From Candidatus Latescibacterota bacterium (GTDB lineage Bacteria; Latescibacterota; UBA2968), in NCBI GenBank assembly GCA_965198115.1, contig OZ240241.1, positions 2,400,001 through 2,464,000 of the forward strand: 64,000 nt of DNA, read 5' to 3'. The notes under the pieces are model-generated. The model was not told the DNA's origin, made no database searches, and saw nothing but the letters and a program-made list of their open reading frames with translations. Made by a program: the position numbers and the translations under genes. This document shows, piece by piece, positions 1,860 to 22,856 of this stretch (its first letter is position 1; each line of letters opens with the position of its first letter).

Positions 1860-2145
1860 TCAAACCAAAGGAGAGTCTACTAACCCCTGCTCCCCAGCTT
1901 TTCTGCTGTATTCCACCGGCACGCGCACCGAAAACGTGCTGCTTCTACCCAACTCACTCTCAACGCCAATTGACCCGCCCAGCAACTGGGCAAACTTCTT
2001 CGTGATCGAGTCCGAGACCCGTGCCTTTCCGCACGCTGCTCTCCGACCCTTCGGCCTGGCGGTATTCGTCAAAGATGGTGGGCAGCTCGGCGGCGGGGAT
2101 GCCCTTGCCGGTGTCCGCAGCGGCGAGGCCCCAGCTGGTCGTGTC
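1860..2145 (-). pseudogene. HK C-terminal (HATPase_c) remnant R1
   Basis: Encodes [28 protein letters not shown]…SITKKFAQLLGGSIGVESELGRSSTFSVRVPVEY with small indels; matches the 3' end of 18136-19587. Confidence 0.9.
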
Positions 2146-2190
2146 AGCAGGACTGAAGCGGACACGGGGCCATCGGGATGGTGCCGCACT

Positions 2191-3031
2191 CTATAGCTTC
2201 CCGAAGTTGAAAATCCCCCACGCCAGATGGCCATTCCACCCGCCATCAATCCAGTACTGGAGGCCCTTCTTCATGTTGGCCACGTAGTCAGACGTAACAT
2301 CGGCAGCCAGGTCGGCCTCGTGGGCTTCCGTTTCCTCCAGCACCCGCACGTAATGGTGAACGAGTTGGTCGGTCAGGTCCTCGAACAGGATCTGCTGCAT
2401 CCCCAGAACCTCGGCTGTCCTGCGGTAAAACGCTGGGGACCCCAGCGACGACAGGTGTATGCGGTCCAGAATCGGTTGTAGCACCCCATCCAGACAGTCC
2501 TCCGATTTCATCGGATCGGTGAATACGAACTCCCCACTCGATTTCAGGACGCGATGGACCTCCGACAGGACCTGCTCCCGGTCTCCGCTGTGCAGGATGG
2601 CATCCTGCGACCAGACGACATCCACGGACGCGTCCGGCAAGGGGATCTCCTCGAAGCTGCCGTCAACGACATCGATCAGGTTCGACAACCCCTGTTCCAC
2701 ATTCATCTTGCGGCCGCGTTCGTTCTCAACTTCGCTGAGATTCAGAGCCGTCACCTTGCATCCGAAGGTGCTGGACAGGTACCGGGCAGCCCCGCCGTAG
2801 CCAGCGCCGATGTCCAGAACACGCGTGGCCTTCGTTCGGCTCCGTGGAGAGCTTCGCCGCCATGCGCTCAACTGTGCGGCGGCTGGCTTCCCGAATGGAC
2901 TCGGCAGGGTCGACGTAGATGCCCACGTGGATGTCTTCGCCTCCCCAGATGCGATGGTAGAAAGCGTCGGCGTCCTCGCTGTTGTAGTAGTCACGAGCGA
3001 TTTTCACCGCGTGGTTAAACGTTGTTGTCAC
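2191..3031 (-). CDS. Sarcosine/dimethylglycine N-methyltransferase (glycine betaine synthesis), frameshifted near 2830-2850
   Basis: N-terminal YYNSEDADAFYHRIWGGEDIHVGIY and SAM motif VLDIGAGYGG, WSQDAILHSG, GHLAWG lie in two frames. Confidence 0.8.
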
Positions 3032-3033
3032 AC

Positions 3034-3165
3034 CTCAACCTTTCTCTGTATTCCTTCTCCGCTACGTGAATGAAGAAATCCGGCTCCTGGAAGTCACCGA
3101 AGGTATCGATCTTCCGAAACCCGACCTCGTGCAATCGTAGTAGGTGTACCTTGTGGAACCCACTT
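3034..3165 (-). pseudogene. 3' fragment of glycine/sarcosine N-methyltransferase
   Basis: EVGFRKIDTFGDFQEPDFFIHVAEKEY resembles the GSMT C-terminus and lies directly upstream of SDMT, the usual gene order. Confidence 0.65.
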
Positions 3166-3169
3166 TTAC

Positions 3170-4141
3170 CTATCGATAACTGAACATCACTTGGATGCAT
3201 TGCTCTGGATGCTGGTGAACGAGTTCGTAGGCCTCCGGCGCGCTGTCGAAGGGCAGGTTGTGGGTGATGAGGGAATCCAAGGGCATGTTCGGCAGCATTC
3301 TCAGCGTGCTCCTCACGCGCCGTTCGTAGGACCACCGGGAGGACAGGTGGAGGGGCACGCTGCCACCCTGGGCAACGCGGAGGTGGACACGCTTGTGGTG
3401 GAAATCCCGTGTCAGGTCGAGGGCGGACGCATCGGAGGAGTACCAGCTCAGGGGAACGATTGTGGATTGCGGGCGAATCGCCTTGAATGCGTCGTTCAGG
3501 GCTGGGATCGCCCCGCTGGTTTCGAGGACGACGTCGGCCAGCTCTCCGTCGTTGTGCGCGCGAACCTGCTCCTCGACGTCGACGTCAGTCGGATCCAGGG
3601 CGGCGTCGAGGCCCATCCGTAGGCCGGCCTCCCGCCGGAGGGCGATGGGATCGAAGCCGGTGACCGTGAACGCCCCAGCGCGTCGGACCAGGAAGGAGGC
3701 ACAGAGCCCGACGACACCCAGGCCGAAGACGACGGCGGTCTCACCGAGGGCGGTCTGAGACTCGAGCACCCCGTTGTAGGCCACGCCGGCAAGGGCGGTG
3801 AAGATGCCGTACCGGGGATCCAGCCCATGCGGAAGGCGGTAAACGGGCTCTTCCTCCGAAATGAGAAACTCGGTGGCGTGTGAGGCGTAATGAAAGATCC
3901 GGTCTCCCACCGTGGCTTTCGTGAACTCCGGGCCGATTTCCACGATTTCGCCTACGGCCGAATAGCCGCTACGCCGCGGGAACGAACCGGCGATGCGGCC
4001 GCTGTAGACGTTCATTTCGGTTCCGTGACTGATCCCCGAATACAGCGTCTGCACACGGGCCTGGCAGGAGCCGAGTGGCGGCGCCGGCTCGTCGTGGATC
4101 TCGACTTTCTCCGGGGCGATGATGTGAAGCACTCTGACCAT
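3170..4141 (-). CDS. Zn-dependent/MDR alcohol dehydrogenase-like oxidoreductase
   Basis: SGISHGTE, GYSAVG, Rossmann GLGVVG, ETSG. Confidence 0.85.
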   Translation of the reverse strand: MVRVLHIIAPEKVEIHDEPAPPLGSCQARVQTLYSGISHGTEMNVYSGRIAGSFPRRSGYSAVGEIVEIGPEFTKATVGDRIFHYASHATEFLISEEEPVYRLPHGLDPRYGIFTALAGVAYNGVLESQTALGETAVVFGLGVVGLCASFLVRRAGAFTVTGFDPIALRREAGLRMGLDAALDPTDVDVEEQVRAHNDGELADVVLETSGAIPALNDAFKAIRPQSTIVPLSWYSSDASALDLTRDFHHKRVHLRVAQGGSVPLHLSSRWSYERRVRSTLRMLPNMPLDSLITHNLPFDSAPEAYELVHQHPEQCIQVMFSYR

Positions 4142-4474
4142 GGTAGAGCGACTCCGGTTAGGACTGACGGCGCGTTGGGGGGCGAAAGCCCGAGGACTAC
4201 CCACGAGAGTATGAAAACCGCTATCGGATGAGTCGTTACCCGGACAAAATCTCGTACATCCAGACGGCCATTTGGCTGTTCAGCCACGGCGGGAAACACT
4301 ACCAGACGCTGATCTGGGCGTAGGAAGGTCGCTGGTACACGGAGGTGACGAGCGGGGTTGTATCTCTTACCGACTCGAAGCGGGACCGAACGTGTAATCA
4401 GTCAGCCGGGCGGCGGTGTCGGAATATGGCCCTCCGTTCAGGGTAATGTCAACGAGCTCTTACCGTTTCGCTGT

Positions 4475-4531
4475 TCAACTCTGGGCCTGATACTCCACCG
4501 GCACCCGCACCGTAAACGTGCTGCCCTGGCC
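4475..4531 (-). pseudogene. HK tail remnant R2
   Basis: Encodes [18 protein letters not shown]; begins 2 nt after the stop of 4533-4997. Confidence 0.9.
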
Positions 4532-4532
4532 G

Positions 4533-4997
4533 CTACTGCCCAGACGGCAGGTCCGAGTTGAAGATGTCCACCGAGATCAGCCACTCCCCGTCGGGCTGCC
4601 GGCGTCGAATCTCAATGTACTTGCCCGAATCCTTGATCGGCCCCGCTGGCACGATCGTCATCGTGTAGGTACCCAGCACATACGCCAGGTCGTCGCGGCC
4701 GTCTACCTGCACATTGTTTAAGGTGAAGTCTGTCACCGGAGGGAACTTCTCGACCCACGCCTGGATCGCTGCCCGTCCCTTGACCATCGGCGTGTTCGGC
4801 GGGAGGAGAATGGCATCATCGGTATAGAGCTTCGCTGCGGTCGCCCAGTCTTTGGCGAGAAAAGCCTTCACGAAGTTCTGGGACCCCTCGTCAATCGCGC
4901 TCACACTGGCCTGAGAAAGTGGAGCAACCTGCTCCTGGCAGGACAAGAGAGCGGCGAGCATCGCCACGAATCGCAGGGTTCTGATTACGGAACTCAT
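4533..4997 (-). CDS. SnoaL/NTF2-like (DUF4440) exported protein, probable lipoprotein
   Basis: Signal peptide ending LLSC; LYTDDAILLPP…GRAAI…GKYIEI…PDGEWLISVDIFNSD. Confidence 0.8.
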   Translation of the reverse strand: MSSVIRTLRFVAMLAALLSCQEQVAPLSQASVSAIDEGSQNFVKAFLAKDWATAAKLYTDDAILLPPNTPMVKGRAAIQAWVEKFPPVTDFTLNNVQVDGRDDLAYVLGTYTMTIVPAGPIKDSGKYIEIRRRQPDGEWLISVDIFNSDLPSGQ

Positions 4998-5242
4998 CTG
5001 GGCCTCCTACTGTAAGAGTAACGTGACCTCACTGGATGAATGAAGCACCACGAAGAGGCTACGGAAAACACGGACGAGGACGGAGGCAAGGGTGCTCTTA
5101 ACCTCAAACCTCGTTTTCCATCATTCCTCGATCGGCGTCAGGTTCCGACCGTTCGGACCCGACCAGATCGCATAGATTTCGAGTGAAATGGTTGTCGGCT
5201 GTGCCGAACAAGCGGCCTGTTCTGCCCACGTGAGGGCAGTCT

Positions 5243-5354
5243 TCAAGATTGGTACGCCACAGGCACCCGCACGGTAAACGTGCTGCCCTTGCCCACCTCG
5301 CTCTTCACGCCGATGGTCCCGCCCAGTAGCTCGGCGAATTTCTCGTGATACAGC
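5243..5354 (-). pseudogene. HK tail remnant R3
   Basis: Encodes [31 protein letters not shown]. Confidence 0.9.
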
Positions 5355-5373
5355 TGCTCAAAGTTCGGTGTAG

Positions 5374-6759
5374 TTAACCATCACGGCAGACCGGCTGCCT
5401 CCCAGGCGGCCAGCCCCCCACCAGGTCGGAGACCGAAAGCTCTTCCGACTCCAGGAGGCTCGCAGCAATCGAAGATCGGTATCCCGACTGGCAGTGCACG
5501 ACGATGGGGCCGTCACCCAGCTCGTCGATGCGTTCCCCAAGATGGGCAAGGGGGATGTTGACACTCCCTTTGATGCATCTCTCCTCCCACTCAGGCTGCG
5601 CGCGCACATCCACGATCGTCACAGAGTCACCCTCCTCGATCCGTTCGGCCAACGTCGCGGCTGCGATGCGCTCGATTCGACTCACCAGGTCGGGATGCGA
5701 TTCCAACGGCTGCATTCCGCCTTCCAGATAGCCGACTACGCGGTCGTAGCCGATGCGTCCCAGACGGAGCGCGCCCTCGGATTCGCGGCCCGGTTCTGCA
5801 ATCAACACGATTTCTTCCTCCGGCTTCAGCAGCGTCCCGCACCACGTGGCGTACTTGCCGTCGAGTGCGATGTTCAGACTTCCCTTCACGTGCGCTCCCG
5901 CGTACTCCGGCGGCTCCCGCACGTCGAGAACGCGCGCACCCTTCTTCATCAACCCGCGAAGCTCCTCGACACCCAGTCCTTTCAGCGACGTCTCGAGCGC
6001 CGTCTCCAGCGTCGCGTGCTCCCGCGAATTTAGGATCGCATCGTAGGTGAAGTAATCGGGCGCGTCCGGCTGCTCGGCATTCACGATGGCAATGAATGCC
6101 TCCTTCTCCATCGGCTGCAGCGCGTAGTTGTAGGTCCGCTGAACCCCGATCGTAGACACGGTGTCTTCGCTCATATTCTTCCCGCACAGCGACCCCGCGC
6201 CGTGAGCCGGATAAACGAGGGTTTCGGCGGGCAGTTTCATCAGCTTTCCGTGGAGCGATTCGTAGAGCAGTGCCCCCAGCTGTTCCGCCGTCCACCCAAG
6301 CGAGGCCCGCAGATCCGGTCGTCCCACGTCGCCGATGAACAGGGTGTCGCCCGTCAGGACTGCGTGAGGTTTCTCGCTGCTCTCGGCAAGGTCATAGACC
6401 ACGATGGAGATCGACTCGGGCGAGTGTCCCGGAGTTTCCAGGATTTCCAACCGAACGTTGCCGAACTCGAGGGCATCCCCGTCGCCTCCGGGCTCGAACG
6501 CGTACTCCGCTTCGGCCCGACGACCAAGATGGATGGTCGCCCCTGTCTTGTCCCTGAGCTCGAGATGCCCAGCCAGAAAATCAGCGTGAAGATGGCTCAG
6601 GAAGACGTGCCGGATTTCGAGCCCGGCCTCGCCGACATCCGAAAGGTACTGGTCGATATCGCGCTGGGGATCGACGATCACGGCCGTCTGTGTCTCCTCA
6701 TCCGCGATCAGGTAGGATGCGTGCGCCAGGCATCCGAGGTAGTACTGTTTCAGGATCAT
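5374..6759 (-). CDS. MBL-fold hydrolase with rhodanese domains (persulfide dioxygenase-sulfurtransferase type); probable frameshift near the 3' end
   Basis: SHLHADF, TPGHSPE, GDTLF…GRPDL, PAHGAGSLCG; rhodanese HCQSGYRS. Confidence 0.9.
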   Translation of the reverse strand: MILKQYYLGCLAHASYLIADEETQTAVIVDPQRDIDQYLSDVGEAGLEIRHVFLSHLHADFLAGHLELRDKTGATIHLGRRAEAEYAFEPGGDGDALEFGNVRLEILETPGHSPESISIVVYDLAESSEKPHAVLTGDTLFIGDVGRPDLRASLGWTAEQLGALLYESLHGKLMKLPAETLVYPAHGAGSLCGKNMSEDTVSTIGVQRTYNYALQPMEKEAFIAIVNAEQPDAPDYFTYDAILNSREHATLETALETSLKGLGVEELRGLMKKGARVLDVREPPEYAGAHVKGSLNIALDGKYATWCGTLLKPEEEIVLIAEPGRESEGALRLGRIGYDRVVGYLEGGMQPLESHPDLVSRIERIAAATLAERIEEGDSVTIVDVRAQPEWEERCIKGSVNIPLAHLGERIDELGDGPIVVHCQSGYRSSIAASLLESEELSVSDLVGGWPPGRQPVCRDG

Positions 6760-6916
6760 TTGGATGGACTCCAGTATATCGGGGTCATAAGAAACCAAGG
6801 GTTGGGCTACGTACTCAGAATGTCATAGGCCGCCAAATTCGGCCGATCTCACTTAATCCAGTGGTGAGAGAACAAAACGACCTCACGAGTTTACGGCATC
6901 AAGATGTGGGCTCCCC

Positions 6917-7074
6917 GATACTGGACCGGCACCCTCACCGTAAACGTGCTGCCCCTGCCCACCTCGCTCTCCACGCCGATGGTCCCGCCCAGCAGCTCCG
7001 CGAACTTCTTGGTGATGGACAGCCCCAACCCTGTGCCCTTCTGCACGCTGCTCTCCGACCCTTCGGCCTGACGG
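6917..7074 (-). pseudogene. HK tail remnant R4
   Basis: Encodes [52 protein letters not shown]. Confidence 0.92.
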
Positions 7075-7193: not shown

Positions 7194-8529
7194 TCAGTCT
7201 TCCGCGATGCAGTAGAGATAATCTCGCCCGCGCAGGAAGATTTCGTTTCCCGCGATGGCCGGCGAAGCCGAGAACTCATCGTCGAGCGTGTTTTGGCTCA
7301 GAACTTCATACTGATCGCCTCGCTTTTATTACGACCGTCGTCCCGTTCCTACCTGTGATGTAGACCCGGTCGTTCGCCCCGACGGGCGAAGCGTAGATCC
7401 CATCGATTCCACTCACTCTTTGGGGGCCGAAATACGGGGCGCCCGTCTTGGCGTTCAGACACGAAAGGATGCCGTCATTTCCTTTGAGGAAGTAGAGATA
7501 ATTACCGTAGAGAAGGGGTGAAGGAGTGTAAGGCGTGTCCCGATCGTACCGCCACAAAACGGCGTCAGAATCCGTGATGTCACCCTTTGCACTTGAAAGC
7601 TGAATGGCCAGGAGCATGTTTCCGCGAAAGCCGCTTGTGACATAGAGCCTGCCATCAGCGTAGACCGGTGTAGGTATCACATTGTGCGTCATGCCGCTGC
7701 ACTCCCAGATCATCTTGCCCGTCTCCAGATCGTAGCTTCGCACACGACCAGTCGCGCTCGTGATGATCTGACGACTTCCGTTTTCGTCCACAATCAGGGG
7801 AGTCGCCCACGATGTGATTTCATCCCGATCCACCTTCCAGTCCACCTTTCCCGTCTTCTTGTCAAGGGCAACAAGGAACGACTGCCTCTCGTGATCCCAA
7901 ATGACGACGATCTTGTCGTCGTAAATTGCGGGAGAGCTGCCTTCGCCGAACCCGAGCTTGATCGTCATATCTCCGAAATCGGTCTTCCACTTAAGACTTC
8001 CTTTGAAGTCGTAGCAGTACAGCCCCTGGGACCCGAAATAGGCGTAGACGTGCTCGCCGTCCGTGATCGGCGAGCCTGATGCCCAGCTCCCCGTAGGATG
8101 CCTACTCTCGTGGGGCATCGCCTCGTGCGCCGTCCGCTGCCAGTTTACTTTTCCGGTTCTTCGATCGATCGCAAAAATCTCGAACTTCTGAACGTATTGG
8201 GTACTCAAGGTCGGCGGGCCACGGCGACGGGCCCGAGGCCCTGGCGTCTGCCGATCGCCGACCACATCGGTTTTAAACGCTGAGAGGATAAAGACCTGAT
8301 CTCCCCAGATGATGGGCGAGGCGTGACCCCTTCCCGGAATTCCGACTTTCCAGCGGATGTTCCGGTTCTCACCCCATACCACAGGTGGATCGGCAGGAAA
8401 TGACGTGCCATTTGCAGATGGTCCACGCCATTGGCCCCAGTATGGATCAATGTTGGAAAGATCCTCGGCTCCGACCGCGGCGCAAGATCCTGCACACAGA
8501 CTCAGGACAACTGCTACAAAGCTTGTCAT
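7194..8529 (-). CDS. PQQ-like beta-propeller (BamB-family) exported protein; frameshift near 7320
   Basis: WGQWRGP, GHASPIIWGD, SSPAI, YASPV; the C-terminus FSASPAIAGNEIFLRG…LYCI continues in another frame. Confidence 0.85.
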
Positions 8530-8628: not shown

Positions 8629-8923
8629 TCACGTGGCGTCCGCGTATTCCACCGAAACCTTCACCGTAAACGTGCTGCCCCTGCCAACCTCGCTCTCCAC
8701 GCTGATGGTCCCGCCCAGCAGCTCTGCGAACTTCTTCGTGATGGACAGCCCAAGCCCTGTGCCTTTCTGGACGCTGCTCTCCGACCCTTCGGCCTGACGG
8801 TATTCGTCGAAGATGGTCGGCAGCTCGTTCTCGGGAATGCCTTTGCCGGTATCGCTGATGGCGATGACCAGCTGGCCGTCTTCGGTGGACGCGCTCACGG
8901 TCACGCTGCCGCTGTCCGTGAAC
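8629..8923 (-). pseudogene. HK tail remnant R5 (longest)
   Basis: FTDSGSVTVSAST…[72 protein letters not shown]. Confidence 0.95.
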
Positions 8924-9103
8924 CACCAGCCCGGCAGTCAGTTGCTTCAGCAGACCTTTCTCGCCCAGTAGGTCATCGGGACCGTCACAGTTCTTGATCA
9001 GCTCATCGAGGAGACGATCGACTTCAGCATTCCTGGCCATAGAACCTCCTGTTTCTTCACTATAGGATTCTATCACCAGTTACACGGTTAATCTTACACA
9101 CTC
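8924..9103 (-). mobile_element. IS256-family 5' remnant fused to HK tail R5
   Basis: Terminus GAGTGTGTAAGATTAACCGTGTAAC; peptide LLDELIKNCDGPDDLLGEKGLLKQLT is typical of an IS256 transposase N-terminus. Confidence 0.75.
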
Positions 9104-9378
9104 TGGCGCTGGCAGTACAATCACATCAGACCACACAGCTCATTGGGCTATCGCCCACCTGCACCTGAAGCGGTCACCAAACCGCTCACCGCAGCCATAT
9201 CCTAACTCTGGATGTGGACACATAGATGGGGGCAGGTCACTCTGGCGACAGCGCCCCGTGCACCACGACGTAGCCGTTTTCCTTGAAGTGATCGAGGTAT
9301 TCGTCCATCGCATATCGTGTTGCTGCCATATCGAGACTCTCTGTTGTTCGAGTTTGTGGAACACGTGTAGTGGCAGGT

Positions 9379-9418
9379 CATCGCAATCCAAGATGCGACC
9401 CGCTCTCCGCCCGAACAA
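9379..9418 (-). promoter_or_regulatory. Promoter-like TTGTTC-17-CATCTT followed by ATG, of the HK-promoter type
   Basis: Same -10 hexamer and spacing as 22571-22599; no long ORF follows. Confidence 0.45.
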
Positions 9419-9796
9419 GCACGAGCTTCCACCTACGCTGGAAGCTTCGGCGGACGGGCCGGCGGGCGTGGGTGGTGGAGGGGATTAATTCAAGTGAAAT
9501 TGGAAAATCAGAATGCAAACTGAGGGTCTGTCTGGGTCACGAGAATTCGAGAAGCGTACGGGAAGAACCCTGGTTATCCTTCCAATACGTTGGAGATCAT
9601 CCCGGAAGAGGCAATCCGGCTGGGGGGGATGCTGACAAAGTGGACGTCAGCACGATGGTCCAGACCGTGGATCGAAGCTCGGGCCACCGGTCGGTACGCG
9701 AAATCGCCGGACGGGTGTCGACTTCACTGGGGTGGTCGCTGGCACACGCGGTTTCTGCATTCGACATCAGCGCGCTGCAGATAGGACGGAGGTTAC

Positions 9797-12346
9797 GTGA
9801 GGACAGGAAGAATCATCGCCTTCGTGGGCAGTGTGGGGCTTGCGATTTCGCTGGTCGCCGGCGTGTCTTCGGCTGCGGTATCCGAGGCGGCCATTGTGCT
9901 GACGCGAGAAGCGCTTGCCGATTCGGGCGACACCCTCGCGTCGTTCGAAGCCGTGCTGTCGACCGATGTCGACCAGGCCCTGGCCGACGTCTGGAAATCG
10001 AGGAACCCGCCGATCTATCGATATTATTTCGGTCACCTCGCTGGCAGGCGGCTCTACACCGCATCGGACGCCTTCTACGACGGGCTGCGGAACGTCCCCC
10101 TTCTCTTTCAGGTTGGCGCGCCACCCGCTAACCCAGCCCATCTTGCCCAAGCCGACGCTTTTCTGCGAACCCTTCTCGTTCGGACGCCGGAAGATGCGGT
10201 TGCCCACAACGGGCTGGGCTACATAAGACTGGAGCGTGGCGACTACGAGGGTGCCGAAGCGGCGTTTACGGAAGCCCTCGCACGGGATCGACAACTCGTC
10301 GAAGCCAGAAACGGCCGAGCTCTCGCTTTCCTAGCCCGGCCTAACGGGGGGTCAGAAGGCGTCGAACGGCTCCGGCGGGCGTGGTCGGCCAACACCGACT
10401 ATGGCGACGCGCTCTACGGTCTGGCGGTTGGGCAGATCGTCATCGGGGGTCGCGATATCGGTACGGAGTTCGAGAAGCTGGTTGCTCGGTTTCCAGATCA
10501 TCGGGACGGCTGGTTCAAGCTCGGGGCTTTCCACGAAGCAGATTTCATGGTCGAGAAGGATGCCGACCTCGGAAGAGCGGCGGACGCCTACCGACGCCAG
10601 ACCGTGGTGAATCCCGATCATCCGAAGGCCTGGTTCCGGCTGGGACGAGCCCTGAATCGGTCGGGCCAAAGCGAGGAAGCCATCCAGACGCTTCAGCGAA
10701 TCACGGCCACTCAGCCGGATTACAGACACGCGTATCTCCCTCACTTTTTCGAGGCGTGTCTCAAACGGGGAAATGGGAAACGTGCCTGGTCCGCTGCCCA
10801 GGCGTTTGTAGCAGGTCTCGATCCGGACACCCGCTCCGCCTATGAGGACATCCGGACCATCTCGACCCCCGAAGAAACCAGCGACTTCACCGGTTTGGAC
10901 GGCGCGGTGCGCACCGATTACATCAGACGATTCTGGCAGAAACGAGACCCGACGCCGGTGACGGATGAAAACGAGCGTCGTGTCGAACATTATCGCCGGG
11001 TTCACGACGCGATGGAGTTCTACCCGTCGGCATCCGGGTCGTGGGATCGTCGAGGCGACCTCTACATCCGCTATGGGGATCCTGCCCACACAGGCCGGTG
11101 GAACAACATCCGAAGTGAGCGCACGACAAGTACGCTGTATGCCAAGGACCGTCTACTCCAGTCTCTTCCAAGGACGGCGCAACACGAGATCGCCGAGGCC
11201 AGCAGAGATGCGGCCCACGAAGCCAGCCTCGCGGGGTATCTTTCCGAGTCCGGACGACGCCCGTTCGATCCGAGCGGCGGCCGTGAGCAGATGCTGGACG
11301 TCGTCGAGGGGTTTCCTCTCTACCCCGTCCAGCGCGGTCGATTTTGGGAATACTGGCTCTATCCGGACATCGTGGAAGGTCTGGAGATCGTCTTCGTGGC
11401 GTCCGACCCGGACGGGCCGATGGACTACCCGCCTCCGCCCGAGGGCCGCGGCCGGGGGAACGACGCGGTGTGGGAGGCCCATCATCCAGCGAAGATTCTG
11501 GCCGAAACGATCGCGGTCGAGAGTGAGTCCTACAGCCTCGAGGGGCCGTCCATCGCGGTGACGCTTGACCACGCCGACTTTCGGGGAGCGGGACGCAAGG
11601 CGCGACTTGAAATCTACTTCGGGTACGCACATCGGAACCTGACGCCGGTTCGTGAAGACACGGGCTACGTCGTTCGCGGCATTGCGCTGTTCGACACGAC
11701 CTGGACCGCGAGATACCGGCGCACGGACACGCTGACGTTCGTGAAGCGGGGAGAGGTGGAGGAAATCGGGATCAGTGAGTTTCCCGTCAACCTGCCCGGC
11801 GGGAACTACATCGTGGGTGCTCAGTTCGCCGACCCGACGTCGATGGCCGTCGGGTCGGCGTATCTTGAGGTCGAGGTCGACAATTACCCGGCTGGTAGAT
11901 TCGGGTTGAGCGACATCGAAATAGCTTCGGTGATCAGAGAACCCGAAGCTGACGGGGGGCATCTCATCGTATTCCCGAATCCGACGCGGCAGTATACCCC
12001 AAAAAGCCCCGTCAAGATGCACTACCAGATTTACGGGCTGTCTGGAGGAACGAACGGGCGATGTCGCTATATCGCGGATGTTCGCATCGATCCACGCGGC
12101 GATGCGCGGCCCTTTGTCGCGCGCGTGCTTCGTTCAGCCGGCAAAGTCGTGCGAAAGACGAGAAACAACGACGGGATGTCCATCAGAACGGAGGCATCGA
12201 ACGACCGACCCGATCAGGAGGAATATATCGAGTTGGAAGCGTCGGGTCGATCCGGGGGGCACTACGACGTGACCGTATCCGTGACGGATCTTGTAACGAA
12301 CCGATCGATCGCGAAGCAATCGGCGTTCGAGATCGTGCGTCGATGA
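9797..12346 (+). CDS. GWxTD-domain protein with N-terminal TPR repeats, exported
   Basis: Signal peptide; TPR motifs (AHNGLGY…G.YE.AE.AF..AL); FWQKRDPTP…NERRVEHYRRV…DRRGDLYIRYGDP. Confidence 0.85.
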   Translation: MRTGRIIAFVGSVGLAISLVAGVSSAAVSEAAIVLTREALADSGDTLASFEAVLSTDVDQALADVWKSRNPPIYRYYFGHLAGRRLYTASDAFYDGLRNVPLLFQVGAPPANPAHLAQADAFLRTLLVRTPEDAVAHNGLGYIRLERGDYEGAEAAFTEALARDRQLVEARNGRALAFLARPNGGSEGVERLRRAWSANTDYGDALYGLAVGQIVIGGRDIGTEFEKLVARFPDHRDGWFKLGAFHEADFMVEKDADLGRAADAYRRQTVVNPDHPKAWFRLGRALNRSGQSEEAIQTLQRITATQPDYRHAYLPHFFEACLKRGNGKRAWSAAQAFVAGLDPDTRSAYEDIRTISTPEETSDFTGLDGAVRTDYIRRFWQKRDPTPVTDENERRVEHYRRVHDAMEFYPSASGSWDRRGDLYIRYGDPAHTGRWNNIRSERTTSTLYAKDRLLQSLPRTAQHEIAEASRDAAHEASLAGYLSESGRRPFDPSGGREQMLDVVEGFPLYPVQRGRFWEYWLYPDIVEGLEIVFVASDPDGPMDYPPPPEGRGRGNDAVWEAHHPAKILAETIAVESESYSLEGPSIAVTLDHADFRGAGRKARLEIYFGYAHRNLTPVREDTGYVVRGIALFDTTWTARYRRTDTLTFVKRGEVEEIGISEFPVNLPGGNYIVGAQFADPTSMAVGSAYLEVEVDNYPAGRFGLSDIEIASVIREPEADGGHLIVFPNPTRQYTPKSPVKMHYQIYGLSGGTNGRCRYIADVRIDPRGDARPFVARVLRSAGKVVRKTRNNDGMSIRTEASNDRPDQEEYIELEASGRSGGHYDVTVSVTDLVTNRSIAKQSAFEIVRR

Positions 12347-13481: not shown

Positions 13482-13536
13482 GGGAATGCTCCTTGAAAGA
13501 CGAGTGGTGGTTCTGGGCTTCAGGCATCAGGTGGCT

Positions 13537-13571
13537 GATAGCTGCCCGGCACGCGTGAACGTGCTGCCCTT
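13537..13571 (-). pseudogene. HK tail remnant R6 (minimal, internally deleted)
   Basis: AAGGGCAGCACGTTCACGCGTGCCGGGCAGCTATC; abuts the stop of 13571-14716. Confidence 0.7.
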
Positions 13572-14716: not shown

Positions 14717-14833
14717 TAGTGATCCTTTAGGACGGGAGAAGTAAGAATACATCCGCGTCGGCCGTGCCGGGGACTCTCGGCGGGGAGGAGGCGTCGGAGA
14801 ACGCGACCCGGTTGACTACAGCTTCTTGCGGTG

Positions 14834-16375
14834 CTATGACCGCCTCGGGGGTTTGCCGAGATTGCGCGACACGTAGTTGAAGATGACGGCTCGTCTCGGG
14901 GTGTCGTTCTTCCACGGGTAGGCGCCGTGGATCTGAGCGGATCCCATGAAGATGACGAGGTCGCCGGCTTTCATCTCGACGTGTCTGAGAAGTCCTCTCT
15001 CGTCCTCCAGAGAGCGCACGCGCTCGGGCACGGGGTGACTCGTTTTGTGCGAACCGGCAATGCCGAAAAAGCCGCCGTCGCCGGCATTCACATCGCGCAG
15101 CTGCCAGGCGACGTTGATGGTCTCGCAGTACGTCCTGCCATTCTGCAGCGCATAGATGCTTCGCGCCGACCCGGGGTAGCACCCGCTGTGCACGCCGTGC
15201 CCCGAGGTGCCCTTTTCGTAGACGATGGCACGCGCGGCGTCGACGACAAAGCCCGAGCCCGACATCCAGTTGAGACGCTGCACGAGAGCGGGGTTGGCGA
15301 TCATGCGGCGGAACGGTTCGGCGTGGGGATGCGGGAGGTCGAAGAGGCCGCTCAGCGATGACACGCCGGTGCCGGCGAGTCGCTTCGTATTGTGGCTTAC
15401 ATCACCTCCCTTGACGATGTTGTCAGTACCGGCGTCGATCGCTTCATTGGCGGCAGCGAGCCACGCTTCGTCCATGACGTTGCGCACGACGAGGTGGCCG
15501 TTGAGATCCCAGAAGTAGAACTCCTTTTCGTCAATCTGGCAATCGGGGTCGCGAATCGTGGTAGTGGGATGGTAGGTCCCCGGCTCCTCGTCCACCCACG
15601 TGCGCGTGCCGTCGGAGTGGACAATGGGTGCCGGATTCGGCCGGTCGACACCGAGGATGACGCGCTGCTCCGGCGTCATCTCATCCACCCAGTTTGGAGG
15701 GTCTCCATCCGCATCCTCGGCGGGAGCGTCATTCGACCGGCGCACGAGCCGGCTGATATAGCCGGTGCTGAGCAGCCGTTTCGCCCCTCCCCTCCAAGGA
15801 CGCATGCCCTGGAGCAAGGTGGCAACCGACAACAGCAGGTCACCCGCCTCGAGCGCCGGCTGCAGTGTCAGACCCATGTCGTCACTGCCGTCGAGGACAT
15901 CGGATGGCGTCTCGACGAGGCTCTTGTGCGAGCAGGGCACGAGGCTGAAGCCGCCATCTCCCTCGGCGACATCCCCGAGAGCCCAGATCGCGCGGACGCC
16001 GAGAGTGAAACGGGCGTCGTTACCGCAGTAGTAGGAACCGGACCAGTTGCGTGGCTCGCCGCCGCCGACCAGAGGCGCAGCTGGCGCCACCCGCTCGTCG
16101 AGCAGCCGTGGCGGTCGATCGAGTCGGCTGCCGTCGTAACAGAGCTGATCGAGGTATCCCGTCAGGATCGGGTGCTCGAGGAGCCTGACGAAGGGATCGC
16201 ACCAGGGTGACTCCCACTCCAGCATCCCCTCCCGTCTACCGACGCGATCGATGGCCTCATTGCAGGCGGTCACCTCCGGCTGCGTGAGGACCCCACGGAG
16301 GATGAGGTAACCGGCGACGTCGAGACAAAATTCATCTTCTGGTGAGATTTCAGGCTGGGAGTTTTCTGGAACCAA
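14834..16375 (-). CDS. Tandem-domain PhyH-family dioxygenase
   Basis: Two PhyH domains; FWDLNGHLVV, HGVHSG, GGFFGIAGSHK, IHGAYPW…RRA. Confidence 0.88.
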   Translation of the reverse strand: MVPENSQPEISPEDEFCLDVAGYLILRGVLTQPEVTACNEAIDRVGRREGMLEWESPWCDPFVRLLEHPILTGYLDQLCYDGSRLDRPPRLLDERVAPAAPLVGGGEPRNWSGSYYCGNDARFTLGVRAIWALGDVAEGDGGFSLVPCSHKSLVETPSDVLDGSDDMGLTLQPALEAGDLLLSVATLLQGMRPWRGGAKRLLSTGYISRLVRRSNDAPAEDADGDPPNWVDEMTPEQRVILGVDRPNPAPIVHSDGTRTWVDEEPGTYHPTTTIRDPDCQIDEKEFYFWDLNGHLVVRNVMDEAWLAAANEAIDAGTDNIVKGGDVSHNTKRLAGTGVSSLSGLFDLPHPHAEPFRRMIANPALVQRLNWMSGSGFVVDAARAIVYEKGTSGHGVHSGCYPGSARSIYALQNGRTYCETINVAWQLRDVNAGDGGFFGIAGSHKTSHPVPERVRSLEDERGLLRHVEMKAGDLVIFMGSAQIHGAYPWKNDTPRRAVIFNYVSRNLGKPPRRS

Positions 16376-16446: not shown

Positions 16447-16506
16447 GTCAGGCTTCAGGTGGGTGATAGCTTGTGCGGATTCGCACCGTAAACGCGCTGC
16501 CTTCCC
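16447..16506 (-). pseudogene. HK tail remnant R7
   Basis: Encodes EGSAFTVRIRTSYH…; boundaries approximate. Confidence 0.7.
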
Positions 16507-16522
16507 GATCCGCTTCTATTTG

Positions 16523-16872
16523 TCAGGAATCGACCCCAAAGCTAGCCACGCCCGCATCGGCGTTGTCGAAAAACTGAAACACTTCCTCCAGATGCGTTAC
16601 CACGAAGACGTTCGTCAACCGCGTGTTCACCCCCGCCAATCGCAGGTCACCGCCCGCCTCTTTGGTCAGTTTCAACGCCGCCGTTAGAATGCCCAGCGTG
16701 CTACTGTCCAACCAGTTAACTCCATCCAGATCCAGAACCACTTTCGAGGTGCCATTTGTAATCAGTTTTCCGATCTCGTCGTTCTCAATTCCTCGCTATG
16801 GCTCGCATAGAGCGTGCTCTGCTCCGGCTTGACCACCGCTACTCCATCCTGAACATAAACCCGGGTGTTCAT
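16523..16872 (-). CDS. STAS-domain anti-sigma factor antagonist; frameshift near 16790
   Basis: VVLDLDGVNWLDSSTLGIL…GGDLRLAG…VFVVTHL; RBS AAGGAG before the ATG at 16872. Confidence 0.85.
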
Positions 16873-17006
16873 TTTGTTCTCCTTCGGTTTGTTGAGCAGG
16901 GGCCGACTTACGGGATACAAAGAATGGTTGCTTCGCGACTGAACACAAAACTCAAGTCAGGTTGTTATGTACAGGACCCTCCGACTCGAACCATCAGCAG
17001 GCCCCT

Positions 17007-17059
17007 GATACTAGACCGGCACCCGCACCGTAAATACTCCCCCTCCTCACCTCGCTCTT
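17007..17059 (-). pseudogene. HK tail remnant R8
   Basis: AAGAGCGAGGTGAGGAGGGGGAGTATTTACGGTGCGGGTGCCGGTCTAGTATC (KSEVRRGS…FTVRVPV*Y). Confidence 0.8.
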
Positions 17060-17075
17060 AATCCCCGAACCACAT

Positions 17076-17675
17076 TTATAACGCGTCCTCTGCCCACTCG
17101 TGATCGGGCGGGATTGTCCACGTTTCCGACAGTGCCAGGCAGCAACTGGATCCCTCTTTACCGAACAGATCCCGGGGCAGAACCCGTCCGGGAACCGTTT
17201 CGCCATTGATCGTCATTTGGGCACGCCTGGCGGGGATCAACAGGCTGTAGACGCCGTGCGGCTGGTCCGGATTCTCGCCTGGCTGGTTGGCGACCTGGAC
17301 CGGTTCCATGAAGTCGTACCAGGATAGGGCAATGTGCTCATCCCTCGACACGACGTATTCCACCCAGGAAGTCAGCGTGTCGCCCTTTTTGGTGAATCTG
17401 GCCTCGATGATGGGAATGTCACCCGAGTAGGTATCCCGCATCGAAGCCTGGATGCCTTCCTGGAGCCAGCGCGCAAGGGCGAAGTTGTCGGAATAGATCC
17501 GAGGCTCGTTGTTGGACAAGACGCTCTTTGCGAAGAGGATGTGGCCCACTCCCCTGGAGGATGCCATGATCCGCCAGTGGCTGTTCTCGGCCGTCGGCTC
17601 CGCATCCTCGGACTCTCCGATACGCAGAAATGAGTTCTCGCCTGTGAGACGTATCTTGTTGGGGTCTGCTCCCAT
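17076..17675 (-). CDS. Hypothetical protein
   Basis: 199 aa, strong RBS (GGAGGAGG), protein-like composition. Confidence 0.7.
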   Translation of the reverse strand: MGADPNKIRLTGENSFLRIGESEDAEPTAENSHWRIMASSRGVGHILFAKSVLSNNEPRIYSDNFALARWLQEGIQASMRDTYSGDIPIIEARFTKKGDTLTSWVEYVVSRDEHIALSWYDFMEPVQVANQPGENPDQPHGVYSLLIPARRAQMTINGETVPGRVLPRDLFGKEGSSCCLALSETWTIPPDHEWAEDAL

Positions 17676-17719: not shown

Positions 17720-17902
17720 TCACGATTTCGCCTGTCTCAGAATTCCCTCGTAAATCGCCTTCACGGCCTCAATGGTGCCTCTGAGTTGATCCAGCTCTTC
17801 CGTCACGTCTTCTCCACGACGGCTGCGATCCAACAAGGTCATCATTTCTCGAGCGTGGGTCTCGAGCTGAGTATGCAGGTTCTGTAGGGTGTCTTCTGTC
17901 AT
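17720..17902 (-). CDS. Small helical/coiled-coil hypothetical protein
   Basis: 60 aa amphipathic; RBS GAAGGA just after the stop of R9. Confidence 0.55.
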   Translation of the reverse strand: MTEDTLQNLHTQLETHAREMMTLLDRSRRGEDVTEELDQLRGTIEAVKAIYEGILRQAKS

Positions 17903-17914
17903 CGGTTCAGTCCT

Positions 17915-18006
17915 TCAAGTTTGCTCTTGATACTCCGTCGGTACCCGCACTGTGAACGTACTCCCCTTACCCACCTCGCTCTCCACACCGATGGTCCCAC
18001 CCAGGA
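17915..18006 (-). pseudogene. HK tail remnant R9
   Basis: Uninterrupted [29 protein letters not shown], ~130 bp downstream of the full HK. Confidence 0.92.
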
Positions 18007-18135
18007 ACCCTGAGGGGGAGAGGGGGCGCTGGGAGGAGAGCCCTCCTTCGCGGCTGACGCCGCTTCGGCGGACAGGAGGGGGAAAAAGCGGAAGCCCAAC
18101 GCGATTCTCTGGCGGTTCGTTTAGCCATACGCGAC

Positions 18136-21100
18136 TTACTCGGTATACTCTGTGGGGATGGTGACGGTGAATGTGGAGCCTTTACCCACCTCGCTCTCCA
18201 AGGTGATCGAACCTCCGAGCAACTCCGCGAACTTCTTGGTAATCGACAGCCCCAACCCTGTACCCTTCTGCACGCTGCTCTCCGACCCTTCGGCCTGACG
18301 GTATTCGTCGAAGATGGTTGGGAGTTCGTCGGCGGGAATGCCCTTACCAGTGTCAGAGACGGAAATGATCAGTTCGCTGGCCGTCGAACTGTCGGCGGTT
18401 GGCGGTGAGCTGTCGGCGGAGCCATCGCGCTCGGTTTCCGTGTCCCCGAGTGTGCCGGCCGGTGGCCGGGATGTAACGAGGGGCGCCAGATTCGCGCGAA
18501 CCACTACTTCTCCCGAATCCGTGAACTTGATCGCATTGGACAGGAGGTTAATGACCATCTGTTGCAGCCGCGCCTTATCAGTGTTCGCTTCGCCGATGTC
18601 GACGGCCACGTCCTGGCGGAGCTCAACGCCCTCCTGGATCAGAGGGCTGACGGTGTCGCACGCCGACGTGACCAGTTCCCCCACATCGAACCGCTCGGGG
18701 TTCACGTCCATCCTGCCTGCCTCAATTTTCGACAGGTCGAGCAGGTCGTTGATCATCGCGAGCAGGTGGTCGGATGCCTGATCGACCTTCTCCAGGTTCT
18801 CGCGCTGCCTGTCGGGAATCTCACGACCGATCCGTCGAAGCACCACGTTCGTAAAGCCCTTGATGGCGTTCATCGGCGTGCGCAGTTCGTGCGACATTGA
18901 CGCGAGGAAGGCCGACTTGCGCTCGGTCGCTTCCTGTATCTCGCGGATGTCGAGGTAACGGGCGTAGCCGAGGGCGACGGCGTCGGCGAATTCACGTAGC
19001 GTGGCGATCTCGTCGTCGTTGAAGCGTTCCCGACCTGACGCAATCAGCCTGAGCCGCCCATAACTTCCTGCCGGGACTTCAAGGATTGTCGTGTCCTCTT
19101 CAACAACCGCCTGCCAGGGCTCCCCGGCGATGAAACGTTCGACAGTTTGACGAATCACACCGGGGAACGGTGCAGCAACGGCAAAGGCTTCTACGGCGAC
19201 GTGGCCTGTCGTGTCGAGCGTGTAAGTCGCGTATTTGAATCCGTTCTCCTCAAACAGCTCTATCGTCGGATTCTCGACCGGCTCATCCAGCACGTCGATT
19301 TCGCAGCCATCGAAGGTGAGTTCCACCGTCTTCAGGCTCTCGGTCAGCAGCGACAGGATGCGCTCGAAATCGCTCGCCTCGTCCATCGACTGCACTTCAG
19401 CACGTAGACGCTGGACGGATGCCTCAACAGCGAGTCGACGGTTCTGTGCTTCCTTCTGCTGTAGCTCCTTGTGGCGCGAATGGGCGTATCCAAACACGTC
19501 GCCGAAACGGTTGATGAGCATCACGTATTCTTCGGCGATCGGCTCTTCAGACGCCACGTGGACATAGCCACCACAGAAAAAGGCCATAAATCAACCTTCT
19601 TCGGCCACTGGTCTTCAGGAACTGCCCCCCAACGAAGATACCCGCGCTTGGCATTGTCCCGGATGCTATCTCTGAGTGCATCATCCTCCAGGTGAAAATG
19701 GTAGTACTCTTTACCCCTCAGACGAGCTTGCGTTGGCGGAGAGTTTTCAGGGGGACGTCGGACCATCTTGTACGGCTTCCGAGCACGACCCGTTTCATCT
19801 GTAGACCATACCTCCATTTTGGTATCTGACACGTGGATGGTGATGGACGAGTCCACCAGATTTAGCCCAAGCCCAGTCAACTCATGACAAACCGCCTCCA
19901 CCATGGGACCAATGTCCTCGCTCGACTGCATCCCCTGCGCCTGACCCCGCAGCCGCTCCAGCACCTGCTCGCGCTGGAGGTCCACGTTGACCTGGAACAG
20001 TTCGTTGTTGGCGGACGAGAGAGCATCCACCGAATCCTGTAGCTTTCGCTTGCCCTGCACGACGCGGGCGGACTGGAAGAGCACGGCGATGATGAGCAGG
20101 AGTCCAGGACCCGCCACGACGGGGTCACGCCACCACGGGGCCTCGACGACAAACGAGTGAACGGCGGGTGTCGGGTCTACGTTGAGTTCGTCATCGGCAG
20201 CGCGTACTTCAATGCGGTGCTTCCCCGACGATAGAGATGTGAGGGTGACACCATCTCGGGTCGTCCAGGGTGACCAGTTGCCAGCGTCCAGACGGTGCTG
20301 GTAACGAACCTCCTCTTGCGGGGTGACGTCCCAGAGGTCGCGGCCGGACCACGTCAACTGGGTGTTGCCAGAGGAACCAACCTCGGCCGGGGTGACTTGG
20401 AAGCGGGTCTCGGGGGCGTCTTGGTCCGTTGTCAGACTGCCCGTCAGGCCCGCCCCCGTCGTGTAGCCCAAGCGTCCGTCCCGTTCCAGCCAAAGGTGTT
20501 CCACCACGCCAGGCCAGATACCGTCTTCCTCTGTGTAACTAGCCCAGAGTTCCGTTCGAGGGTCAAAGTGGCTGATGCCGTTGTCAGTGGCGACCCAGAC
20601 CGTTCCGTCCGAGTCGGGGAGAACCTCTTCTGAGAATTCACCGGCCAGACCATCGCGCATCCTGTAGGTTCGCCAAGCTGCCTGCCCTGAACCGGCATCC
20701 GACTTGTATCGCGAGACACCCAAGCCGCCGGCAATGCCTCCGTATGTGCACCACAAGTCCGAACCTGAAACCCGAAACCCCCTTGCCTTATTGCCCGGAA
20801 ATCCCTCCTCATAGCTCGACCAGGTGCCGGTGAACCAGCTGATGCCGTTGAGCGTGCCTGCCCAGATGGTGCCGTCCGGTGACTGTCCGAAGCCGTAAAA
20901 TGCGGTTGTGGAGAAGTCCATCGGCAGTCGTGTAACGGGTCCACGTAGATCCATCGAAGTGCATCACGCCGTCGCTGACCAGGACTGCTCCCGGCTTGGG
21001 CCAATTATTGGTGCCGAACCAAATGTCTCCGCTCGCTTCAACGAGAGGAGAATGGAGTCGCTCGGCATCAACACCGGGGTCCAGAACCTGCCACGACTTT

Positions 21101-22563
21101 CCATCGTAGCGGCTGGCCGCCGCCCTCCCGTCCCGGCTGCCGGCCACCCAGAAAGTGCCGTCAGCCGGCCGATAGACCACCCCAACTTTTCCTTTGCCAC
21201 TGATAGCTGGTGCAATCGACAGGCGCTGGAGACCGATGTCCGATGCTGTGTGGGTTTCCCACCGACCTGCCACGTATCTGCACCATCCTCTTGATTGAGC
21301 CGCGAGGAACCATACGGAGCCGTCGTCAGTGGCTGTCATCGCCACGTAGGGCGGGTCGAGCAGTCCTTCCATGGGTCCGTAGAGCACCCAGTTCCGGCCG
21401 TCGTAGCGAACCGGACCGTTGTCGGTCACGAACCACGTAGAACCATCCGGTGTGCCATGACCGCCTTTCAACGAACGACTTAAATGGAATCGCGTTCGGA
21501 GATGCTCCCCAACCCGAATCCGGTGTGCGAGAGGTCTTCTCCACGGGAATAGCCACACCGAGCCGCTGCGGCCTACCCGGACGAAGACGCTACCACTTTG
21601 CTTTAGGGCCGAATCCACGGCACGCCAGCCCTCGCCAGTAAAGGTCACAATGTCGCCGTTGCGACTGGCCGACCAGATCCGCCTGTCCGGCGTCTCCCAG
21701 ATAGAGACGTGGACTGCATCCGTGAGGCCATCTGCAGGCCGGTATACAGTCCATCTATCATCCTTATACCGAACGATGGCCGGGACGTCCCAGGCGGTGG
21801 CCCAAACCGACCCATCTGACGTTTGAACGACCTCGACGTAGCTGAGACCCGGAAGGCCTTGCTCCAGACCGAGTACCGTCCATTCGCCTTCACGATAGCG
21901 TAGCAGCCCCTGCCCAAATGAGGCAATCCAGAGGGACCCGTCTGTCGCCTCGGTCAGAGACCTCACAGCGAGCGTATCCGTCGGGGTCTCCACCACAGAC
22001 CATCTGCGTCCGTCAAATTTACTCAGACCCCCGGCACCCCCTTGAAGGGACCGGAATCCTGCCCACAGACCTCTCTCCCCCGACAGCTTGAGACTTCGCC
22101 CCGAGATGAAATCGTCCGGCAGACCGTCCTTCACGGTGTAGGTGCGGACACTGTCGGCCAGCATCCGAGTGATGCCACCACCGAGTGTCCCGAACCACAT
22201 TGCGCCGTCTGGCGTCTGGGTGATGGTGCGAATCGGACTGGTTTGGGACGGGTCACGAGTGTGGTCGGCACCCAGGCCAGCACCCAGGCCATCTTCGCTG
22301 GTGAAGATCCGGTAGTGCGTGCCGTCGTATCGGACGGCTCCCGCGTCCGATGCAAACCACATATTGCCTTCACGGTCTTCAAAGATATCGCGGACCGGAC
22401 TTGGCAGGTTGAACTCGGTCCATCGCCAGGTTTCGGACAGCGGTTCGGGCTGTGGTGCGACTGTGAGGGTGTCCAGGGCGTAGGCCGGGACCGTCAGCAG
22501 CAGGCAGACTCCTACACGCAGAGCGCTACGGAGTCCAGAGAGGATGGAGGTAGGGATGCACAT
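18136..22563 (-). CDS. Membrane sensor histidine kinase with two-component-regulator beta-propeller, Y_Y_Y-like and GAF-like domains, HisKA and HATPase_c; split by two frameshifts (~20900, ~19590)
   Basis: Signal peptide; repeats DGxMWFG/EDGL; TM VVAGPGLLLIIAVLF; H box FLASMSHELRTPMNAI, N box NLLSNAIKFT, G1 DTGKGI, G2 GTGLGL. Confidence 0.92.
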
Positions 22564-22570
22564 TGTGACC

Positions 22571-22599
22571 AAGATGTGGTTCTATCGATGAGCGTGCAA
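22571..22599 (-). promoter_or_regulatory. Sigma70-type promoter TTGCAC-17-CATCTT, 7 nt before the HK ATG (probably leaderless)
   Basis: Canonical spacing; no RBS; architecture repeated at 34628-34656, 44207-44235 and 53232-53260. Confidence 0.65.
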
Positions 22600-22856
22600 G
22601 CAAGGCTGATTGGGGCGAATAAGCCAGCGACAGCTTCACAGAACGAGATCACAACGGTAGAACGTTGAGGATTTGCAGTCGAGGGAGATACCTGAATGAT
22701 CTGTTCAGGCATCGGAAAGGACGTAGAGGATCAACCTGTTGATTTTCCTAGGACTTCGTATTCGCCCCCTCACGGCACGGTGTTTGCCCTTGACACAGGT
22801 GGTTGAATTCACCCACTGGGTGAGCTACTTTACTGCAAGTCAGGAGAGGACGGAGA

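Follow-up and report, generated by a model that had tools for sequence, protein, structure and literature searches.

A window of 64,000 nucleotides from the genome of a Candidatus Latescibacterota bacterium (GenBank assembly GCA_965198115.1, contig OZ240241.1) carries an array of nine short orphan 3' ends of a sensor-kinase family, with unrelated genes lying between them. The source genome (G000) is a single 8.43-Mb contig (C1), and the window corresponds to C1:2400001-2464000. The orphan 3' ends are referred to here as tails; orphan 5' pieces of the same family, consisting of promoter-like sequence and the first codons, are referred to as heads; and the genes between tails are referred to as cargo. 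On balance, the array probably represents displaced kinase 3' ends within a tRNA-Glu-type island, built by repeated homology-anchored insertion. The feature is real and lineage-wide, and its components correspond to known processes that are combined in a new way.

All nine tails (R1-R9) are present at the places given in an initial annotation made from the sequence alone. They lie on the minus strand, translate as HATPase C-terminal pieces and are 35-295 nt long. The 3' end is common to all, as that annotation had reported, and the start is variable. The uniform end motif that it had also described does not hold: R5 reads FTVKVSVEY, R7 reads FTVRIRTSY, and R6 is frameshifted. R1-R5, R8 and R9 are clear tails (BLASTN E <= 5e-9). 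R6 (6.5 bits) and R7 (3.8 bits) are weak on their own, the reversed-genome control of a later profile reaching 8.7 bits. These two calls rest on position and alignment: R7 is in register when aligned with the other tails, and R6 has in addition a better-kept duplicate at genome 497195-497240 (25.6 bits in the profile search), within a block of enzyme 1, R6 and enzyme 2 that is duplicated whole at 496051-497904 with 85% identity. Pairwise identity among the tails and the resident kinase (W) is 46-90%, which rules out one recent duplication, as had been argued. The short distances from cargo stops to the next tail also stand as first given. The cargo is nearly all on one strand, as described, save for the TPR gene. 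The picture of one array behind one kinase gene needs amending: there are two sub-arrays, split where an orphan head (9370-9425) and an insertion sequence (IS) stub precede R5, and the resident kinase is spread over three frames. R5 is most readily explained as a remnant of a second kinase, with R4-R1 as that kinase's own array; R1 would be the original end of the island's kinase. Palindromes that we take to be REP-like occur at or beside several tail starts (window 18009-18135; locus L157, 6260-6340; locus L022, 1260-1470) as well as inserted in heads and kinase frames, and may be break points.

The layout could in principle reflect contigs joined through the repeat, an explanation to which we assign a negligible probability. 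Tails are repeats, and the assembly contains many frameshifts and has 5.1% contamination. However, contigs of data set X1 match the window at 1500-4520, 4499-5293, 5275-6990, 9302-13413, 15641-17262 and 17568-18292 with zero differences, and bridge the R1, R2, R7, R8 and R9 junctions. These five junctions are therefore not long-read joins through the repeat, X1 being possibly the source sample and so not independent. An X1 contig has a loose end at 8923, the R5 joint. Read joints between tails (e.g. 4525 to 6956) were left out, as other tail copies yield the same signal. The tails are also too unlike one another to mis-join, and the layout recurs in other genomes. Frameshifted genes are many in G000, and at least some of the frameshifts are real, since that near 2831 is shared by the X1 contigs and absent from X4 and X5 contigs, which are one letter short there.

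Across G000, curation of BLASTN and profile searches gave 17 long family ends and 36 orphan tails, the latter including four that are either short of the final codons or remnants of longer, broken copies. Of the 36 tails, 23 have the end of a kinase or of another tail in the same orientation within 6 kb upstream, and none has such a neighbor on the opposite strand; random placement gives a mean of 0.66 and a maximum of 4 in 2000 trials. The tails are thus clustered rather than scattered, which agrees with the proposal that the kinase 3' end is a repeatedly used anchor. Clusters with several members are single-stranded in 12 of 14 cases. Thirteen tails (R6 and t497 among them being one event) start within 60 nt of a co-oriented stop, compared to 10.5% of 3000 random intergenic points. 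Two control kinase profiles recovered 50 and 53 other kinase ends, of which 45 and 46 fall in genes of at least 200 aa; by gene calls the remainder mostly resemble split halves of whole kinases, with one or two weak matches per profile unexplained. Because other kinase groups of G000 leave almost no such orphans, the tails appear to be specific to this family. Differences from the consensus fall mainly at the third codon position (257/1041, versus 93/1028 and 68/1039 at the other two), and this bias indicates that the tails were once the ends of working genes.

The family consists of expanded beta-propeller sensor kinases (Reg_prop, Y_Y_Y, HisKA and HATPase domains), with DNA conservation at both ends. 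Up to reference position 236, kinase W shares 86-93% identity with VRVP-type copies. Past position 240 it is at most 74% identical to any listed family end, and its last ~70 nt are foreign to the VRVP subfamily. This switch of type (237-242) coincides with the start of R9 (235), which is itself of the VRVP type. Likewise, kinase K3, of the ITIP type, is followed by an ITIP-type tail. Three observations together argue for homology-anchored displacement: the W/R9 switch, the restriction of terminator and att sequences to terminal tails, and downstream links that are common to other organisms.

The second of these concerns the outer frame. The array takes up an island of ~25 kb that has a tRNA-Glu-type att repeat at either end, one of them good and the other degenerate. 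The 19-mer of the right site (1748-1766) also flanks tRNA-Glu genes and a 1822-nt unit in G030, a genome of another family. The terminator-like repeat is kept before att in other islands of this type (right-arm profile matches at 480952, 1441094, 2397180 and 2401853). The G030 unit occurs in two places, 99.8% identical and each surrounded by exact att direct repeats, with one copy at tRNA-Glu. It consists of att, arm, head, a BNR-repeat cargo gene, a 290-nt tail, terminator and att, and its cargo is 98% identical to two G000 copies. A large serine recombinase gene ends in the tRNA-Glu site in G000, where its N-terminal part is cut by a stop; in G030 the corresponding gene at the same site is a 547-aa open reading frame (ORF) that has its catalytic motif (YTRVS), and fragments lie beside att sites at 1439 kb and in genomes G001 and G002. 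None of the G000 att copies with a head or tail is at a tRNA-Glu gene. Terminator and att directly follow the last tail in three places (the window, genome 1441 kb and G030), and internal tails are never followed by this arm. The cargo is enclosed by a frame that opens with att, arm and head and closes with tail, terminator and att. Since only terminal tails keep terminator and att, the cargo appears to have entered inside the original gene. A strict terminator-att pattern matched 1 of 168 genomes, the source genome itself.

Several other features were seen in and around these frames. An IS1595-family element (window 24399-26925) with 39-nt terminal inverted repeats sits between the left att and arm and the head of kinase W; it carries a tRNA-Gln gene (25266-25341) and a 261-aa ORF beside its transposase. 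At two att-like sites (C1:3147256 and 3536061, the latter ~100 nt after tRNA-Leu) the left half reads as a forward tRNA T-arm, with a palindrome around GA. Genes for a D5-like primase-helicase and for a sigma54-type AAA protein lie on the island beside the G030 unit (L030 9047-13538). On the minus strand at C1:2870558-2872531, 20 tRNA genes are packed into an array apart from the dispersed tRNA set.

The third observation concerns what travels with the cargo. Downstream links travel and upstream joints do not: contigs from three studies (X8, X11 and X14) carry the dioxygenase with the 3' part of R7, up to 16493, while the gene at 17076 has tail-less homologues at genome 5657557-5658157 and on X4 and X14 contigs, where the match stops at 17060. 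The contigs from other organisms each span a single cargo gene at most.

Heads form a mirror set on the other side. There are 28, of which 11 are on sensor genes and 17 are orphans; the orphans have a fixed start and a variable end. Hexamers resembling TTGCCC-17-CATCTT precede the start codon in 24 of the 28, and the head is predicted on this basis to be a promoter. A co-oriented gene call lies ahead of 14 of the 17 orphans, three of these calls being IS or tail frames. Between 2.397 and 2.470 Mb a single strand carries ten orphan heads (eleven with that of W) and twelve tails. Three head-cargo units have a counterpart in which a near copy of the cargo lacks the head, and at two head-cargo joints with a known donor the shared words are 8 nt and 4 nt. 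The head-cargo join seen at 9370-9425 is also present at genome 4994409. A strict head pattern gave no matches over the genome contigs. The heads also contain a 7-bp inverted repeat, operator-like, over the -10 hexamer and start codon (e.g. window 34597-34684). A signal-peptide fusion to a new domain at 33760-34419 was considered and rejected, as the partner is a transposase stub. The initial annotation had overlooked the orphan heads, the att boundaries of tRNA-Glu type and the serine recombinase that would act on them in trans, and the nature of at least R5 as a deletion relic of a second kinase.

Table 1. Features of the window (window coordinates)
Feature	Position	Strand	
Right att-like site, 1 mismatch to reverse complement of tRNA-Glu 3' end	1748..1766	-	
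Perfect 19-bp inverted repeat, terminator-like	1776..1819		
R1, last tail (~250 nt, with a single frameshift), adjoining terminator and att	1860..2145	-	
Cargo, SAM methyltransferase, frameshift near 2831	2191..3031	-	
Cargo, zinc-binding dehydrogenase	3170..4204	-	
R2, tail, 57 nt, 2 nt past cargo stop	4475..4531	-	
Cargo, DUF4440/SnoaL-like	4533..4997	-	
R3, tail, ~106 nt	5243..5354	-	
Cargo, metallo-beta-lactamase fold and rhodanese domains	5374..6798	-	
R4, tail, ~160 nt	6914..7074	-	
Cargo, PQQ-like beta-propeller	7306..8529	-	
R5, tail, 295 nt, joined to interior of multi-copy IS	8629..8923	-	
Stubs from a pair of multi-copy IS-like elements; identity to other copies 100%	8924..9240		
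Orphan head with palindromic insertion, fused to 5' stub of dioxygenase-like gene	9370..9425	-	
TPR protein between the two sub-arrays	9797..12346	+	
Cargo, mandelate racemase/enolase-superfamily enzyme 2	12387..13481	-	
R6, tail, ~50 nt, degraded, overlaps upstream stop	13523..13572	-	
Cargo, mandelate racemase/enolase-superfamily enzyme 1	13571..14752	-	
Cargo, PhyH dioxygenase	14834..16375	-	
R7, tail, ~60 nt, degraded, weak alone	16447..16508	-	
Cargo, STAS domain, 3' frame, start further up	16523..16741	-	
R8, tail, ~65 nt, with stops and gaps	16994..17059	-	
Cargo, 199-aa protein, no Pfam family	17076..17675	-	
Cargo, 60-aa ORF, no Pfam family; on separate contigs in other runs	17720..17902	-	
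R9, tail, ~95 nt, starts where resident kinase switches sequence type	17914..18008	-	
Sensor kinase W, the resident gene, spread over three frames; domains Reg_prop (propeller), HisKA and HATPase_c	18136..22572	-	
Head of kinase W, sigma70-like TTGCAC-17-CATCTT just before start	22540..22626	-	
Degenerate left att and conserved left arm, 79% to arm of G030 unit	26935..27056	-	
Orphan head with signal-peptide codons, cut by transposase stub	34345..34684	-	
Orphan head before GNAT gene	44177..44241	-	
Degraded orphan tail	50010..50118	-	
Orphan head before 454-aa gene	53218..53284	-	
Orphan tail between DAK gene and O-methyltransferase	57409..57496	-	

The cargo consists of ordinary genes: a methyltransferase, a dehydrogenase, a DUF4440 protein, a metallo-beta-lactamase fold/rhodanese protein, a PQQ-like propeller, two enolase-superfamily enzymes, PhyH, STAS and two unknowns. 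Two further positions between tails, at genome 395530 and 2981131, also hold DUF4440 genes. Homologues of the cargo genes are mostly without tails, and none of 35 cargo-homologue loci has a head or tail above 8.6 bits. Among 168 genomes, homologues of the dioxygenase occur in 30 and those of the dehydrogenase and methyltransferase in 16. The stubs at 8924-9240 are presumably IS256-like and IS3-like; Pfam assigned the ORF no family. Elsewhere in G000, a near-identical pair of 685-aa genes (C1:489957-492014 and 616660-618717), which we take to encode catalase-peroxidase, each lies near kinase tails, and the common flanks of the pair end 241 nt past the stop.

The layout is found in relatives as well. 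The five closest matches to the family profile bear the titles Ca. Latescibacterota, Latescibacteria or 'bacterium'. A layout of kinase then tail, or of tail, cargo and tail, is seen in G001, G005, G012, G052 and G054, each with its own subfamily sequence; pairs of kinase then tail recur in G005, G012, G052 and G054. The arrays in relatives are shorter, with up to two tails per examined locus, and strong matches to the tail model are few or absent in G004, G009 and G019. The kinase family was not found in viral contigs, and a metagenome scan gave three contigs and no array.

Under homology-anchored displacement, incoming DNA would carry the conserved end of another family member together with its downstream genes. 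Recombination of this end into the resident one would shift the old end, along with its cargo, one place down. The crossover would be of the RecA type, either through homology-facilitated illegitimate recombination of DNA taken up by the cell or through a tail-cargo circle such as that proposed for the rhs genes discussed below, and the far joint would be illegitimate. Small deletions may later trim the tails, and some long tails (R5) would be the remainder of deleted kinases. The heads would be retained since expression of the captured gene would start from them. Whole islands would be moved in trans by the large serine recombinase, with no action at the tails. The RecA-type crossover, the uptake of DNA, the promoter activity of the heads and the mobility of the islands are predictions from sequence. 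The search for recombinases and competence genes suggested in the initial annotation recovered the serine recombinase at the tRNA-Glu site, DprA and a ComEC that is split in two frames, and no IntI. Neither Ku nor reverse transcriptase (RVT_1) was found in G000, and Ku end-joining repair and a retro-element origin were accordingly rejected.

A number of observations weigh against this reading, and several of them fit decay, in which tandem runs of whole kinase genes and their neighbors would have built up through duplication or the accretion of islands, with deletions leaving 3' ends and heads. We regard decay as the less probable account of the array, though one that retains a real chance. 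The joint of R5 falls within an IS copy with 100% identity to others, that is, a recent deletion of a kinase body, and tail t3530 starts at an IS end. Fusions of head to tail with the body deleted are found at genome 2468708-2468328 and in G052 (L139). Half-deleted kinases occur as well. No full-span family copy in G000 has a single open frame. Based on the IS joints, the fusions and the interrupted full-span copies, decay makes tails too. Tandem full kinases exist (K1-K3; G054 L165), tails t624 and t1441 have internal deletions, and the IS load of G000 is very high (single families with 150-230 matches). Other points bear on displacement itself. I3528 and t4465 likewise switch type near position 242, with no tail behind. 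The kinase-spacer-tail cases of G054 have one common downstream flank and may be one ancestral event. Among the 35 cargo-homologue loci, a donor with an intact kinase directly upstream of the window cargo was not found, and the ComEC is split. The rise in tail age with distance from the kinase, which the initial annotation had suggested as a check, is not clear, as damage rises from R9 to R6, yet R5-R2 are clean. However, decay does not account for the W/R9 switch. Eight of the nine window joints have no head, att or terminator match between cargo stop and tail (spacers of 0-232 nt), orphan pieces from the 4-kb middle of the kinase amount to about 4 short matches versus 27 at the 3' end, and terminator and att are kept by terminal tails and never by internal ones. 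Displacement and decay are not exclusive.

The tails might also be retained, whatever their origin, as a cis-acting sequence that would serve the next gene as a ribosome site, a spacer or an internal promoter. A co-oriented gene lies downstream of 25 of the 36 tails, in some cases only 13-24 nt away, and one and the same kinase-type gene is preceded by a tail both at genome 3530 kb and at locus L055, with different upstream DNA. However, a consensus promoter scan gave 5 sites in 1500-18500 compared to 4.5 expected, none of them in a tail; the tails have no stable fold (z -1.35 to +0.43); and their differences track codon position rather than a DNA motif. Such retention is therefore considered improbable. 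A known RNA family in the tails was also rejected, as Rfam over window 1-60000 gave one unrelated match, to Acido-Lenti-1 at window 41699-41743.

Integrons comprise IntI, attI and attC, and their cassette arrays consist of co-oriented small genes with a repeated spacer near the stops and one strong upstream promoter. The window array is similar in being co-oriented, in its small unrelated genes, in the repeated spacer near each stop and in a predicted strong promoter upstream, and the initial annotation had called it integron-like. A recombinase acting in trans that recognizes the tail core and inserts cargo cassettes would be in keeping with the content (small enzymes, DUF4440, STAS), the tight joints at cargo stops, and the 21 tyrosine-recombinase and 5 serine-recombinase matches in the genome. 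However, the best match to IntI (TIGR02249) reaches 107.9 of a 265-bit cut-off, and none of the 21 matches is over the cut-off or near the window. No RYYYAAC/GTTRRRY pair 35-170 nt apart, as expected of attC boxes, occurs around any of the nine tails. Tail folds are not below those of shuffled sequences, which also leaves a hairpin recombination site in the tail without support. Tail starts span reference positions 32 to 280 (~250 nt), and the 11 of 32 starts that cluster near 225-240 are no significant excess over an exponential length model (p 0.49). The spacer is derived from coding sequence, and the site of the serine recombinase is the tRNA-Glu end, not the tail. The integron comparison thus fails in mechanism, and we consider a recombinase of this type very unlikely. 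The initial annotation had named both a site-specific recombinase and homology-facilitated recombination; the latter fits best.

Islands that target tRNA genes are known to accrete in tandem and to include integrase-less mini-islands. The features here are similar in the 19-20-nt att repeats from the tRNA 3' end, the large serine recombinase reading into the tRNA, the tandem runs, and the integrase-less 1.8-kb unit in two places in G030. Such islands explain the outer frame only, as the tails and heads lie inside the att repeats and show no fixed crossover.

Closer parallels are found among toxin genes, so that the initial statement that no such array had been described is too strong; what does stand is that those arrays involve toxin tips, not free cargo. 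In the accessible part of Jackson et al. (2009, PMC2935791), rhs genes are followed by strings of variable-length core fragments, displacement through a circle is proposed, and mafB is given as an analogue. The window array has the same arrangement, in which fragments of a gene's conserved part, co-oriented and of variable length, come after the gene itself. As in the reading preferred here, rhs displacement by incoming DNA is attributed to homologous recombination with no integrase, often on islands. The rhs fragments match the clade at their locus; here K3 and its tail are both ITIP-type and the W body and R9 both VRVP-type, and a tree of 30 family ends is barely resolved (1 of 27 branches supported). 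Judging from the same portion of that account, the array differs in that the anchor is the extreme 3' end of a signaling gene, the tails stopping where the kinase stops, with no in-frame toxin tip or immunity gene, in that the cargo consists of whole unrelated metabolic genes outside the frame of the anchor, and in the promoter heads displaced on the other side.

For type VI secretion system (T6SS) effector-immunity arrays of Vibrio cholerae, the sections available of Kirchberger et al. (2017, PMC5361080) propose homology-facilitated illegitimate recombination and liken the immunity arrays to integrons without an integrase. There too a conserved upstream anchor is used, the non-homologous end joins illegitimately and older genes shift downstream. 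Those arrays lose the old effector, and immunity genes accumulate under selection for protection, whereas here the old anchor end stays as a scar and the cargo is unrelated to the anchor. In the lpl tandem cluster of Staphylococcus aureus, as far as the available text of Tsuru and Kobayashi (2008, PMC2568036) describes it, the unit is the 3' part of a gene plus downstream DNA, so that a conserved stretch inside a gene serves as the recombination anchor; its members are all paralogous ORFs, with no foreign cargo or orphan ends, unlike the array here. The window array works like the rhs, T6SS and lpl cases but is not a member, having no toxin tip or immunity gene. A literature search, with most subscription papers outside its reach, gave no report of kinase-end arrays or of this tRNA-Glu island family.

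In toxin-gene displacement arrays the kept immunity genes give a reason for the scars; here the scars follow a signaling gene and the metabolic cargo is unrelated to it. They are accompanied by a mirror set of displaced promoter-like heads and lie inside a putatively mobile island family, and one cargo gene is 98% identical in genomes from two families. A broader interpretation, offered tentatively and in our view doubtful, is that Latescibacterota possess an integrase-free capture platform: a sensor kinase carried on tRNA-Glu serine-recombinase islands, in which the promoter head would express and the tail would anchor incoming genes, with arrays and small head-cargo-tail islands moving between families. 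Homology-anchored gene gain has so far been measured mainly in laboratory transformation, with its rarity as stated in the portion consulted of PMC5361080. If homology-anchored displacement is correct, any multi-copy gene with conserved ends could come to collect genes in the manner of an integron while lacking an integrase, and the history of homology-anchored gene gain could be read from the scars in a phylum that is uncultured.

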